Assembly (NCBI GenBank): GCA_964016885.1
Contig: OZ024755.1
Location: 2,542,001 to 2,606,000, forward strand
From: Eledone cirrhosa
Taxonomy: Eukaryota
Length of the DNA: 64,000 nt
Reading direction: 5' to 3'
Below are positions 4,443 through 51,279 of this stretch, one piece after another; positions within the stretch are counted from its first letter, which is position 1, and every line of letters starts with the position of its first letter. A program made the translations under genes and the position numbers. A model generated the notes under the pieces. It did no database searches. It saw only the letters and a program-made list of their open reading frames with translations, and was not told where the DNA came from.

Positions 4443-4622
4443 TAAGTTATTCCGGGTTGAATCGGAGGTAACCACAGTAAGTAAGGTACTCAAGACATAG
4501 CAGAGTATAAAAGTTTTAATATAGATGAGATTCAACAGGACTAGAACTGTTTCATTCTTTAGAAATCACCAGATTCCTGATGATTTCTAAAGAATGAAAC
4601 AGTTCTAGTCCTGTAGAATCTC
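4443..4622. mobile_element. Hammerhead-carrying short element, family A (retrozyme/PLE-like), fold-back copy
   Basis: Minus-strand tail (...ACTGTGGTTACCTCCGATTCAACCCGGAATAAC) is shared with 50870-50952 and 51195-51278. 4528-4622 is a near-perfect palindrome. Flanked by TA-rich sequence and (TATG)n. Confidence 0.8.
4571..4621 (+). ncRNA. Type I hammerhead ribozyme motif
   Basis: AGATTC-CTGATGA-t TTC taaa GAA t-GAAA-CAG ttctagtc CTG-TA-GAATCT: 6-bp stem I, intact core, stem III, GUA triplet (predicted cut after 4615). The first pair of stem II is U-U rather than G-C. Confidence 0.75.
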
Positions 4623-4870
4623 GTATGTATGTATGTATGTATGTATGTATGTATGTATGTATGTATGTATGTATGTATGTATGTATGTATGTATGTATGT
4701 ATGTATGTATGTATGTATGTATGTATGTATGTATGTATGTATGTATGTATGTATGTATGTATGTATGTATGTATGTATGTATGTATGTATGTATGTATGT
4801 ATGTATGTATGTATGTATGTATGTATGTATGTATGTATGTATGTATGTATGTATGTATGTATGTATGTAT
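4623..4870. repeat. Pure (TATG)n, ~62 units
   Basis: Read directly from the sequence. Confidence 0.98.
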
Positions 4871-5409
4871 AGTATAGTATTTCTTTATGATAATAGCTTG
4901 CTTGATATGATGGCGCTGCAAGTACTACTGTAACTTTTGCTGTTGATGGTGATGCTGATAATGATGACGTTGGCGGAGATGATGGGGAAGATGGAGAGAA
5001 GCTGAACAGCAATGACGATTAAGATGTTGATGCTAATGACAGTTAGGATGAGATGACGGATGATGATGGCGATGACTATTCTAATTTTAGATGATTAATG
5101 ATGGTGGTGATGACGATGGCAATCATCATCATCATCAGCAGCAGCAGCAGCAGCAGCAGCAGCAGCAGCAGCAGCAGCAGCAGATGTTCTCTAGGATGTA
5201 AATGTGGTGACAAAGATCCCTAGGATGGAAATGTTCAGGGATAATCTACATGGTATCCTTTTTTGCTTTGACAGCAATTTGTAAAAACTTCTTTCCCAGG
5301 ACCACATTCCCACAGTTCTGTCTCTTTGTTCTCTTGCTCGTCATCTTAGCTTAAACTAAGGGAAACACCACACACACAACACACACACACACAGGCAGAG
5401 ACAACACAC

Positions 5410-8400
5410 ATATGTTATATATATATATATATACATACATACACACATACACATATATATATATATACATATACACACATATATATATATACATATATAC
5501 ATACATATACATATACACATATATATACATATATATACACATATACATATATATATATACATATATATACACATATACATATACATATATATACACATAT
5601 ATATACATATACATATATATACATATACATATACATATACATATATATACATATACATATACATATATATACATATATATAAATATATATACATATATAT
5701 ACACATATATATATACATATATATATACATATACATATATATACACATATATATATATATACATATACATATATATACACATATATATACATATACATAT
5801 ATATACACATATATATATATATACATATACATATATATACACATATATATATATATACATATACATATATATACACATATATATATATATATATATACAT
5901 ATATATACACATATATATATATATATATATACATATATATACACATATATATATATATATATATACATATACATACACATATATATATACATATATATAC
6001 ATATACATATATATATACATACACATATATATATACATACACATATATACATATACATATACACACATATATATATATACATATATACACATATATATAT
6101 ATACATATATACACATATATATATATACATATATACACATATATATATATACATATATACACATATATATATATACATATATACACATATATATATATAC
6201 ATATATACACATATATATATATACATATATACACATATATATATACATATATACACATATATATATATACATATATACACATATATATATATATACATGG
6301 TGGCTGCCAACTCGTTTTCGAGTACGGCCACTACTTTATATCCATGTAGGAGAACCCCTACCGATGCACTGAACGAGTGTGACTTTTGAGTCCAGCCAGC
6401 GACTTGAAAACTCTGGTACAAACACTACACTTGTGACAATTATTGACACATAGTGCTGGGCCCATGGTACCATGTGACAAGTGCAGAGAGATCTCCAGAT
6501 ATAAAGCAATGCCTGTGCCATGAAGCTTTTATAGTGAGCAAAGGCATTGCACAGAGCCAGTCCCACTCTCTTAACCAAGATGATATTTACCAAAAAGTAG
6601 AACAAGTCAACATCATTGGATACCATCAGGGTTGCAGGTGTTATATCAGAGTTTTCCTTCTCCTAGAATTCTGCCTTGACAAAGGCTAAGGGGTCATCTC
6701 TCCCGGTATATATATATACATATATATATATATATATACATATATATATACATATATATATATATATACATATATATACACATATATATATACACATATA
6801 TATATATACATATATACATATACATATACATATATACATATATACATATATATATATATACATATATATATATATACATATATATATACATACATATATA
6901 TATACATATATATATATATACATACATATATATATACATATATATATATATACATATATATATATATACATATATATATACATATATATATATATACATA
7001 TATATATACATATATATATATATACATATATATACATATATATATATATATACATATATATATATATACATATATATACATATATATATATATATACATA
7101 TATATATATATACATATATATATATATACATATACACATATATATACACATATATACATATACATATATATATACACATATATATACACATATATACATA
7201 TACATATATATATACACATATACATATACACATATACACATATATATATACATATACACATATATATATACACATATATACATATACATATATATATACA
7301 CATATACATATACACATATACACATATATATATACATATACACATATATATATATACATATATATATATACATATATATATATACATATATATATATACA
7401 TATACATATATACATATATATATATACATATATATACATATATACATATACATATATACATATATACATATATACATATACATATATACATATACATATA
7501 TACATATATACATATATATATATACATATATATATATATATACATATATACATATATACATATATACATATATATATACATATATACATATATATATATA
7601 CATATACATATATACATATACATATATACATATACATATACATATATATATATACATATATATATATACATATATATATATACATATATATATATACATA
7701 TATATATATACATATATATATATACATATATATATACATATATATATACATATATATATATACATATATATATATACATATATATATATACATATATATA
7801 TATACATATATATATATACATATATATATATACATATATATATATACATATATATATATACATATATATATATACATATATATATATACATATACATATA
7901 TATATATACATATACATATATACATATACATATATATATATACATATATATATATACATATATATATATACATATATATATATATATACATATATATATA
8001 TACATATATATATATACATATATATATATATATACATATATATATATACATATATATATATACATATATATATATACATATATATATATACATATACATA
8101 TATATATATACATATACATATATATATATACATATATATATATACATATATATATATACATATATATATATACATATATATATATACATATATATATATA
8201 CATATATATATATACATATATATATATACATATACATATATACATATATATATATACATATACATATATACATATATATATATACATATACATATATATA
8301 TATACATATATACATATATATATATACATATATATATATACATATATATATATACATATATATATATACATATATATATATACATACATATATATATATA

Positions 8401-9275
8401 CATATATATATATACATATATATATATACATATATATATATACATATATATATATACATATATATATATACATATATATATATACATATATATATATACA
8501 TATATATATATACATACATATATATACATATATATATATACATACATATATATACATACATATATATATATACATACATATATATATATATATACATACA
8601 TACATACATATATATACATATATATATATATACATATATATATATATACATATATATATATATACATATATATATATATACATATATATATATATACATA
8701 TATATATATATACATATATATATACATATATATATATATACATATATATATATACACATATATATATATACACATATATATATATACACATATATATATA
8801 TATACATACACATATATATATATACATACACATATATACACATACACATATATACACATACACATATACACATACATATATATACACATATATATATATA
8901 CATACACATATACATATACATACATATATATATATATATACATATATATATACACATATATATACACATATATACACATATATATACATATATATATACA
9001 TATATATACACATATATACACATATATATACATATATATATACATATATATATATATATATATACATATATATATACACATATATATACACATATATATA
9101 CATATATATACATATATATACATATATATACATATATATACATATATACATATATACATATATATACATATACATATATACATATATATACATATACATA
9201 TATATATACACATATATAAATATATATATATATATATATATATTTATATAATATATTATATAATATATATATATA
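5410..9275. repeat. Very long TA/TACA/CA compound microsatellite interrupted by the family D insertion
   Basis: 5410-6295 and 6707-9275 are almost purely alternating purine-pyrimidine. Confidence 0.98.
6296..6702 (-). mobile_element. Family D ~407-bp interspersed repeat, probably derived from an RTE 5' UTR
   Basis: About 97% identical to 47196-47605 (11 substitutions + one 3-bp indel by eye). The minus strand begins with CTAGGAGAAGGAAAACTCTGA, a motif I recall from RTE 5' UTRs. Inserted in a TA/CA microsatellite. Confidence 0.7.
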
Positions 9276-9974
9276 ATCGAATTTCATTAACTTTTCTTCA
9301 CCCAGCCCGCCCTCAACCACCACAAAACCACACGGCACCCCCAGTACCCCAGTAGGCGGTTTCACAATAGTGACCTTATTTAAATAATGGTAAATTGTTC
9401 TGTGTTACATTTCGAAGGGGAAACAAAGCGAAGCGAAAGGAAACAAATTAGATAAGCAACTTCAAGAACACATTATACTTTTGATCTGACCTTTTGCAAT
9501 TGCCTAATATAAAACGACTTACAGACAACATGGCGAAGTGTTAGACGGAAGGGACTCGATGATAATTTCATTTTAAGATTCATAGACAATGGATATGACC
9601 TTTTGACCTTATTGCGTGTGATGGTCTTCGCTATATACTTATCTGACCTATTTAGCTACACAGACACACACATTCACACGCACACATATATATATATATA
9701 TGTACATATATGTATGTGCGTGTATTTACATACAAACATTCTCATATATATGCGTATATACTCTCATGTAAATATATATATATGTATTTATATGACATTG
9801 TGGTATATAATTATATCTATCTAAGAAAACTTTCACTTGGTATGTATTGTATAGATGTCCGTCTCTCTCTCTCATATATATATATATGTAAAAGGTAAAG
9901 AGAAATAACAACACAATCGGTACAGTATATGGAAGGGATATATTAGGTTAACGCTTGATATAGCAGAAAGAGGG

Positions 9975-50036: not shown

Positions 50037-50755
50037 GATGAGTGCTCACCTTGGTGAACCTACAACAACTTCATGTTACACTCCCAAGATATATATATAT
50101 ATTTTAAAGTGTTTATTTTGTTTCTATACTGAGAAATGTTCAATGTGTTCAGAGTAAGATAATCTCGAATCACACTTGTTCCTACACACCATAAATTATA
50201 TATAACACATCTTCCTTCTTCAAGTATTTACTCTTGTACTCCATATGTTAAAGTATTCTTCAAAGGAAAAAATAAACAAGGCCATATACATATGTATTCA
50301 TATAGCTTACTTTCCATATACATACATATATATATACATATATATGTGTGTGTGTGTATATATATATATATATATATATATATATATATATATACATATA
50401 TATATATATATATATATATATATTTATATATATATATATATATATATATATATTTATATATATATATATATTTATATATATATATATATTTATATATATA
50501 TATATATTTATATATATATATATATATATATATATGTATATATATATATATATATAAATATATACACATATATATATATATATATATATATATATATATA
50601 TATATATATATATATATATATATATATATATATATATATAAATATATACACATATATATATATATATATATATATATGTGTATATATATATATATATATA
50701 TATATATATATATATATATATAAATATATATATATATATACTTTTTATATAGATA

Positions 50756-50806
50756 AGCTTATACGGGACTAGAACTGTTTCGTTCGTGAGAAATCATCAG
50801 GAAGCT
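50756..50806 (-). ncRNA. Type I hammerhead ribozyme motif (mismatches in stems I and III)
   Basis: Reverse complement AGCTTC-CTGATGA-t TTC tcac GAA c-GAAA-CAG ttctagtc CCG-TA-TAAGCT. Confidence 0.6.
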
Positions 50807-50818
50807 GAACATCAGGTC

Positions 50819-50869
50819 AGCTTCCTGATGATTTCTCACGACTGAAACAGTTCTAGTCCTGTAGAAGCT
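50819..50869 (+). ncRNA. Type I hammerhead ribozyme motif
   Basis: AGCTTC-CTGATGA-tttctcacgact-GAAA-CAG ttctagtc CTG-TA-GAAGCT. Stem I covaries with the 4571 copy (A-T vs C-G); stem II is weak. Confidence 0.7.
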
Positions 50870-50996
50870 TTTCTATATTAAACATTTATACTCTGCTATG
50901 TATTGAGTACCTTACTTACTGTGGTTACCCCCCGAGTGAACCCGGGATAACTTATATATATATATATATATATATATATATATATATATATATATA

Positions 50997-51279
50997 CGTA
51001 GGTCCCGGGTTGAGTCGGGGATAACCACAGTAAGTAAGGTACTCAATACATGGCAGAGTATAAATATATATATATATATATATATATATATATATATATA
51101 TAGATGAGATTCTACAGGACTAGAAATGTTTCATTCATTAGAAATCATCATGATGTTTTCTAATGAATGAAACAGTTCTAGTCCTGTAGAATCTCATCTA
51201 TATTAAAACTGTTATACTCTGCTATGTATTGAGTACCTTACTTACTGTGGTTACCTCCGATTCAACCCGGAATAACGTA
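50997..51279. mobile_element. Family A element, fully palindromic copy (two arms fused at the CTGATGA core)
   Basis: Mirror arms about a centre ATCATCATGATG near 51150. Both arms retain GAAAC..TTCTAGTCCTGTAGAATCTC and the tail; the left arm is interrupted by (TA)n. Confidence 0.8.

Follow-up and report, generated by a model that had tools for sequence, protein, structure and literature searches.

Hammerhead repeats of Eledone cirrhosa as probable 3′-end copies of a young Penelope-like retrotransposon

We analyzed a family of hammerhead ribozyme repeats found in a 64,000-nt stretch of the genome of Eledone cirrhosa (GCA_964016885.1, contig OZ024755.1, positions 2,542,001 to 2,606,000; hereafter, the window). 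These repeats are very probably 3′-end copies of a young Penelope-like retrotransposon (PLE) of the Hydra clade, which carries in its pseudo-long terminal repeat (pLTR) a type I hammerhead predicted to form best as a dimer. The initial annotation, made from the sequence of the window, had described a stand-alone ribozyme family; the family is not an independent one because the repeat is the terminal repeat of intact reverse transcriptase (RT) elements. The copies in the window are likely 5′-truncated, inactive 3′-end stubs of such an element. The family is a new one within the known Hydra clade and is distinct from that of Hydra-1_Obim. A search of the open literature, which does not extend to Repbase, revealed no description of this PLE family, of its satellite, or of a cap G in PLE copies.

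Parent element and its protein

A 32-place hammerhead pattern had 28,456 exact matches in the whole genome (3.0 Gb, rich in TA repeats), while the reversed pattern, used as a control, had none. The first 101 matches on contig C1 were taken as the copy sample for the statistics of ends and core. In the 30 best copies, the 3′ end was common and fixed, with (TA)n behind it; the 5′ ends varied, and 5′ inversions occurred. Walking upstream of the repeats ran into simple repeats, and the parent was found via open reading frames (ORFs) adjoining pattern matches: in L074/L091 one match runs directly into an ORF start, joining the hammerhead unit to the ORF. There were 295 ORF-start candidates in the genome.

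A protein search gave 150 scored matches at 96–100% identity, from which 16 copies were picked for an open 758-codon frame. All of them encoded 713 amino acids, and the ORF identity among intact copies was 97.4–99.7%. The ORF was flanked on both sides by the pLTR in 15 of the 16 picked copies, the sixteenth containing an assembly gap, and 13 had the hammerhead pattern at both ends. The intact parent thus has the layout pLTR, 713-aa ORF for RT and GIY-YIG endonuclease, mostly TA/TG simple repeat, pLTR. The ATG is located 137 nt 3′ of the predicted cut site, and the distance from the stop codon to the downstream hammerhead is 2.4–4.0 kb, mostly TA/TG repeat (15 copies). In L122–L137 the internal TA/TG simple repeat between the stop codon and the downstream pLTR spans 2–3.5 kb, its length differing in each copy; this repeat may be a source of the dinucleotide tracts of the genome. 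Two arms of the window, at 4443 and 51148, were 95% and 97–98% identical, respectively, to the pLTR of intact elements. Older subfamilies, including the type at 35.8 kb of the window, were also joined to decayed homologous ORFs.

The 713-aa protein had 693 relatives at E ≤ 0.001 among 7,995 scored, with 38–53% identity among the matches listed. Its structure was predicted with a pLDDT (predicted local distance difference test score) of 91.9, and the first fold match was a telomerase RT (3du5, E 8.4e-09). A sequence search against PDB with the protein gave no match. The match of the C-terminal piece to GIY-YIG was weak (E 0.00022) and fell below the Pfam cut-off. In an alignment of 77 proteins, the catalytic D253, YRDDG, and Y-x-G were invariant.

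The Hydra clade is defined by a C-terminal endonuclease, RWK, the DKG to DKT change, a CxCX5C linker, CxxC and CxH around conserved E and N residues, and the absence of a conserved CCHH; its members have hammerheads and insert into (TA)n, and it includes Hydra-1_Obim of Octopus bimaculoides (Craig et al. 2021, PMC8557442). The corresponding motifs RW(R/K), DKT, CxCX5C, CxxC, and CxH were present and nearly invariant in the 77 aligned proteins. The first motif reads RWR in our protein, R38 and W39 being invariant and K being the majority residue at the third place, and the DKG to DKT change is at 116–118. Residues C566, C568, C574, C666, C669, E672, N685, and C694 were invariant, and H696 was conserved at 0.99; two cysteines within the GIY-YIG stretch were not conserved (C589, 0.10; C598, 0.03), and there was no conserved CCHH.

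The traits of endonuclease-bearing (EN+) PLEs are found in the element: a single ORF with telomerase-like RT and GIY-YIG endonuclease, pLTRs on both sides (15/16), variable 5′ ends, and one tail in each of the 20 head-to-head pairs described below. Like other members of the Hydra clade (PMC8557442), it has a single ORF with C-terminal GIY-YIG, the clade motifs, a hammerhead near the 3′ end, and a preference for (TA)n. The unit is about 5–6 kb long, owing to its simple-repeat 3′ region, versus less than 3 kb for the clade (PMC8557442), but that length trait (“generally short”) is descriptive rather than diagnostic. The hammerhead of Hydra-1_Obim differs from that of the present family.

Hammerhead fold, copy ends, and RNA templates

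The Rfam check proposed in the initial annotation gave nothing at the gathering score in the window; no hammerhead family was among the 90 weak matches (E up to 10) in 49500–51400, which were only hairpin and simple-repeat noise. The core of a type I hammerhead was present: CUGANGA, GAAA, and UH in three helices with helix I open. At positions left free by the search pattern, the stem II pairs were kept in 95–100 of the 101 copies, the 3′ strand of stem III in 98–101, and A17 in 98. The G10.1–C11.1 pair of type I hammerheads was replaced by U-U in 99 copies. This U-U had been considered unusual; its presence was confirmed, but it also occurs in 14 of 25 published Hydra-clade families, with U-C in one (hand count; PMC8557442). 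The stem III ACAG/CTGT is likewise found in 4 of the 25. In contrast to the clade, loop III has 8 nt instead of 1–3 nt, and stem II consists of 3 weak pairs (PMC8557442). Stem II had been described as TTC-N4-GAA with a variable loop; the pairs are indeed fixed and loop II has at least 8 forms with three or more copies each; the copy at 50825 has TTC-N4-GAC.

Covariation was analyzed in 38 distinct copies with a genuine upstream strand, obtained from 40 rows; L170 and L088 were left out, one being truncated and one having a bulged stem I. Stem pairing was found in 97% of 494 cells, compared with 34–48% in slid controls. Two positions of stem I had two-sided changes, A-U/C-G in 15 versus 20 copies and A-U/G-C in 33 versus 3. 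The covariation score exceeded that of all 500 shuffles; the number of covarying pairs was not beyond chance (190 of 500 shuffles), and none were in stems II and III. The compensatory change AGATTC/GAATCT to AGCTTC/GAAGCT proposed earlier is therefore real, but the covariation reflects about two inherited events rather than many, and for this reason it supports selection in the parent lineages only modestly. Together with the fixed stems II and III and U-U, it agrees with the earlier suggestion that the structure was under selection in the source elements. Judging from these sequence comparisons, selection in the parent lineages likely maintained the hammerhead so that the element could process its own RNA.

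Two monomers cofolded at −21.2 kcal/mol, which is nearly exactly the dimeric hammerhead fold (−20.6) and compares with −10.6 for two monomer folds. The hammerhead is thus predicted to fold best as a dimer, in line with the idea of dimeric cleavage through stem III and its CTAG palindrome. As a rule, PLE hammerheads are weakly active, active as dimers, or assisted by protein (PMC4209133; PMC11167929). Similarly to published minimal-consensus PLE hammerheads, the family has a type I fold in each pLTR, truncated copies in the thousands, a palindromic loop III, predicted dimer activity, and opposite-strand pairs 100–700 bp apart. Unlike them, it lacks the G10.1–C11.1 pair and a long helix II, and its 4-bp helix III can also be closed within one copy.

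The 3′ ends of the copies fell into two zones, 13–28 and 80–96 nt past the predicted cut site (about 21 and 88 nt). (TA)3 was found within 3 nt of the 3′ end in 49 of 92 aligned ends, with a background of 10–13%; 9 of the 101 copies did not align. TA targeting is hence a bias and not a confinement, contrary to the initial annotation; the pair at 4443 ends in (TATG)n. All 20 sampled head-to-head pairs consisted of one long and one short 3′ end (p 1.9e-6). A one-sided tail is known for PLEs, where it is described as 30–40 nt long (PMC8557442), versus about 67 nt here.

In Poseidon, a PLE of Anolis carolinensis, cleavage of both strands with their extension and two internal reverse-transcription starts were shown in vitro (Frangieh et al. 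2024, PMC11167929). The long-plus-short pairing fits an analogous scheme, in which both strands are cut and each has one priming site. By this analogy, the endonuclease would cut TA-rich DNA on both strands, each cut strand would prime the RT at one of the sites, and head-to-head joining of the resulting cDNAs would follow. The present family shares with Poseidon two probable starts bounding the tail, an AT-rich target, and uncut RNA as the probable template. In Poseidon the hammerhead overlaps the start codon and reverse transcription starts 111–118 nt inside the ORF (PMC11167929), whereas both putative starts of our element precede the ATG.

Small hairpins occur a few bases past each 3′ end zone (examples at L123:1760–1850 and 50893–50910 of the window). 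Of 139 distinct long copies, 120 have the hairpin ACTC-N11-GAGT behind the short end; behind the long end, GCAC-N5-6-GTGC is present in 5 of 8 copies. The loops of both are variable. A hairpin just before the long end has an apparent T-A to C-G change between subfamilies.

The 5′ ends were located 5–7 nt before the first base of the core (C3) in 40 of the 101 copies; 18 were spread over 8–36 nt, and 19 reached at least 40 nt. Short copies end at the first base of stem I. Of 60 copies retaining the region, 54 had a TATA box 35–37 nt before C3, or 29–31 nt ahead of where stem I begins, and its position holds across subfamilies with differing spacer letters. At TA tracts, stem I was preceded by G in 64 of the 100 copies listed out of 109, by a templated C in 20, by A in 15, and by T in 1 (hand count); in a second subfamily, this base was G in 9, C in 9, A in 5, and T in 1 (n = 24). 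The count of G at head-to-head junctions (22/44) was set aside, since the partner arm supplies the G there. In LINE-1 and SVA, an untemplated 5′ G has been taken as a copied cap (PMC4859970). The extra G before stem I is likely the mark of the capped RNA start of the element, as far as junction letters can indicate: the TATA promoter in the pLTR would start a capped RNA at the first stem I base, and the stubs would be copies of this RNA, uncut and reverse-transcribed up to the cap. The stubs thus likely copy linear, capped, uncut RNA. Stalling of RT at stem I is a less likely cause of the 5′ pile-up: RT meets the 3′ strand of the stem first, and the stop is at the far edge.

Several facts count against the cap interpretation. 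Direct TA junctions in one phase escape the search pattern, which inflates the share of G. Part of the G may stem from fold-back onto the 3′ strand of stem I through microhomology, an origin that could be discarded in just 4 of the 9 cases with G in the second subfamily. The only characterised Penelope promoter, that of Drosophila, is TATA-less and internal (PMC2377424). Finally, of the copies reaching C3, none of the 25 ORF-bearing ones stopped within 8 nt of it, versus 68 of the 101 in the sample (Fisher p 1e-10), and this lack is not explained by a single linear capped template without a further step.

Because ORF-bearing copies do not stop at stem I, full copies need a separate template without this stop: a circle, a read-through tandem RNA, or strand transfer. 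A circular PLE template has been proposed previously (PMC4209133). We tentatively consider two template classes, a possibility to which we assign rather low confidence: linear RNA capped at the hammerhead start would give the stubs, tens of thousands in number, whose two arms would be primed on opposite strands, and a circle would give ORF-bearing copies. To form the circle, the 5′ and 3′ hammerheads of one transcript would pair via loop III, be cut as a dimer, and ligate. Cleaved templates would be expected to leave 5′ ends concentrated at the cut site; among 30 ORF-start copies, none began there.

In about 12 of 30 older copies (L250–L279), the ORF leader is fused to the first stem I bases of a second hammerhead. 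The letters at these junctions vary, often with an extra G, and the joints represent a recurrent jump to one point.

A 78-bp satellite from the pLTR unit

The contigs of run X1 contained a deep joint going back 77 nt within the repeat; this run may be from the very sample that was assembled. The joint sequence had 1,663 matches, all on one strand, which fit one array of 377 kb and one of 7 units. The large array is located on contig C28 from about 30,496,750 to 30,873,730 (L230–L249, L280–L300) and comprises approximately 4,800 monomers of 78 bp over about 377 kb. Its start is marked by an inverted PLE insertion of the usual kind in (TA)n. Each monomer corresponds to one hammerhead unit of the parent pLTR without the TATA box.

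The C28 array was read in sampled stretches (653 monomers). The core was kept in 488 of these, and no selection on it was seen: divergence was 0.027 in the core versus 0.019 in loop II. Since selection on the core is not evident, the satellite hammerhead looks like a passenger that was expanded at the DNA level, as judged by the monomer sequences. Similarly to animal non-LTR retrozymes and satellites (PMC7229834; bioRxiv 10.64898/2026.07.22.740005), the C28 array, as opposed to the window copies, consists of head-to-tail type I hammerhead monomers from a PLE pLTR. It differs from them in the near identity of its monomer to the pLTR of a living parent, in the absence of signs of core selection and of a TATA box, and in size, the largest hammerhead array in a survey of 35 genomes having 300 units (bioRxiv 10.64898/2026.07.22.740005). 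The excerpts of PMC7229834 and PMC13282606 mention no cephalopod hammerhead repeat.

At the end of the C28 array (L300, about 730 onward; C28:30,873,730), there is a tandem repeat of a second hammerhead family with a CTGACGA core and U-U at 10.1–11.1, which was also seen in L037 and L044. Seven and a half satellite monomers are located outside a TA tract in L218:1440–2030 (C1:350,200,250), with short matches to the flanks; this smaller array looks like a DNA-level capture of an array piece.

Alternative explanations and copies in the window

The identification as a Hydra-clade PLE with a hammerhead has to be weighed against results that do not favor it. Pfam gave no RT domain match with the whole 713-aa protein, and the clade was assigned by sequence motifs and by resemblance to Hydra-1_Obim as judged by eye. 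For the monomer, the hammerhead does not have the lowest energy among the predicted folds (z about −0.3), and the pair probabilities of stems II and III were 0.00–0.24 for 51-nt units. The weakness of stem II, with its three pairs, would also suit a fold kept for a non-catalytic job, such as template pairing via the palindromic loop III or RT binding, with little or no cleavage in vivo. We find this explanation doubtful. Copies read through the cut site, which means that their templates were uncut, and none of the 30 ORF-start copies begin there. Mutating the hammerhead of the anole PLE leaves insertion in vitro normal, and none of the RNA reads terminate at its cut site (PMC11167929); minimal PLE hammerheads cleave poorly (PMC4209133), and 8 of 9 dimers from Xenopus showed no cleavage (bioRxiv 10.64898/2026.07.22.740005). 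However, the U16.1-H17 site (A17 in 98/101) and stems I–III are intact across subfamilies at positions that the search pattern did not fix, and a pure dimer signal would not need them; moreover, the anole hammerhead cleaves once protein is added (PMC11167929).

An independent non-autonomous family, retrozyme- or SINE-like, with its own short or circular RNA and a borrowed Penelope enzyme, would account for the great excess of hammerhead-sized pieces over ORF starts (28,456 pattern matches versus 295 candidates), for the tandem array of 78-bp monomers, and for the recurrence of short tandem joints. It is nonetheless quite improbable: the stubs share 95–98% identity with the pLTR of intact elements and contain no sequence peculiar to them, the older stub subfamilies also join decayed ORFs, the array core is without selection, and the junction matches fit only two arrays. 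Head-to-tail tandems, expected of retrozymes, occur only in the C28 and C1 arrays, the window copies being head-to-head pairs and fragments. The palindromic form of the latter and their position in TA tracts resemble a fold-back DNA transposon (MITE, miniature inverted-repeat transposable element) with long terminal inverted repeats and a TA target, for which the likeness to a hammerhead would be incidental. This explanation has practically no probability left, as it is refuted by the parent structure: the sequence is a direct terminal repeat of an RT element. Furthermore, in all 20 pairs each arm has its own fixed end site, differing from that of the other arm, many copies are one-armed, and the 5′ ends vary.

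With the PLE identification retained, the window copies can be described as follows (Table 1). The repeat is present at all six places named in the initial annotation (4443, 35748, 49677, 50752, 50997, and 57582), but its “at least five copies plus a fragment” correspond to nine hammerhead arms read in register. Eight of them form four head-to-head pairs (4443–4623, 49670–49842, 50742–50952, and 51099–51279), each with one long and one short 3′ end; in addition, there is one arm joined head-to-tail to a tail-and-leader piece, and two tail fragments. The site “50997” corresponds to a short-plus-long pair with a separate tail piece. The three CTGATGA/GAAA/GTA cores reported as intact are so, while the core is broken in the other six arms, and only one arm has all three stems paired. 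The two predicted cut sites stand, as derived from the fold, at the positions given earlier. The test constructs proposed for them, 4560–4630 and 50810–50880, are predicted to fold otherwise and would be poor tests. The tail-and-leader piece ties the repeat to the ORF start, and its relatives continue into decayed homologous ORFs; no ORF pieces of the parent element were found in the window. The window copies are without a promoter and mostly with a broken core, and, paired head-to-head, would form plain hairpins if transcribed.

Table 1. Copies of the hammerhead repeat in the window (positions are those of the whole 64,000-nt stretch).
Feature	Position	Strand	Remarks
Long arm, head-to-head insertion 1	4443..4572	−	A6 to G, A17 to U; full tail ending at 4443; 95% identity to the pLTR of the young element
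Short arm, insertion 1	4571..4623	+	Only fully paired hammerhead in the window; intact core, C3 4577; predicted cut after A4615; then (TATG)n
Older-subfamily hammerhead	35744..35800	−	A6 to G; stem II mismatch; short 3′ end in (TA)n
Older-subfamily tail and ORF leader	35804..35938	−	Head-to-tail with the 35744..35800 hammerhead; 81% to the pLTR-leader of L091
Short arm, head-to-head insertion 2	49670..49727	−	Decayed core
Long arm, insertion 2	49726..49842	+	Decayed core; tail internally shortened; end at (TA)14
Short arm, head-to-head insertion 3	50742..50808	−	Intact core, C3 50800; stems I and III with one mismatch each; U-C at 10.1–11.1
Long arm, insertion 3	50816..50952	+	Intact core, C3 50825; predicted cut after A50863; stem II mismatch (TTC-N4-GAC); end at (TA)22
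Tail-only piece, likely of another subfamily (from its end letters)	50997..51076	−	Insertion 4 landed beside it
Short arm, head-to-head insertion 4	51099..51153	−	C3 lost at the junction
Long arm, insertion 4	51148..51279	+	C3 lost, A9 changed; 97–98% identity to the young intact element; end at (TA)n
Tail-end fragment, 28 nt	57582..57609	+	Within a (TA)n tract

Other hammerhead-like sequences were found in the window. A different hammerhead at 49870–50090 (−; core 50032), with a long stem II and a 7-bp stem I, lies between TA tracts and is likely the end of another Penelope family. A hammerhead-like end at 57365–57525 (+; core 57433), also between TA tracts, has a long stem II and an 8-bp stem I; sequences related to it are present in L027, L039, and L043. 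A minimal hammerhead-like repeat, CTGATGA-A-GGA..TCC-GAAAC, has two copies, at 54980 (+) and 10006 (−). Minisatellites were found at 3586–3712, 38577–38858, and 41853–42202, with units of 31, 51–53, and 29 bp, respectively.

The window copies themselves are ordinary debris, and the value of the family lies in its copy ends and in the derived satellite. The C28 array is an unusually direct case of the transition from pLTR to hammerhead satellite. The role of the PLE hammerhead has been stated to be unclear (PMC8557442), and in the one in vitro study of a PLE, cleavage was dispensable for insertion (PMC11167929). If the cap interpretation is true, the RNA start is fixed at the first base of the ribozyme, stubs and full copies come from different templates, and the question of the ribozyme becomes directly testable. 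The existence of two template classes, if true, would give the PLE hammerhead its missing essential job and would explain the formation of the pLTR. The family is young, intact parents exist, and the ends of its very numerous copies preserve a record of the mechanism, which makes it suited to testing this possibility.

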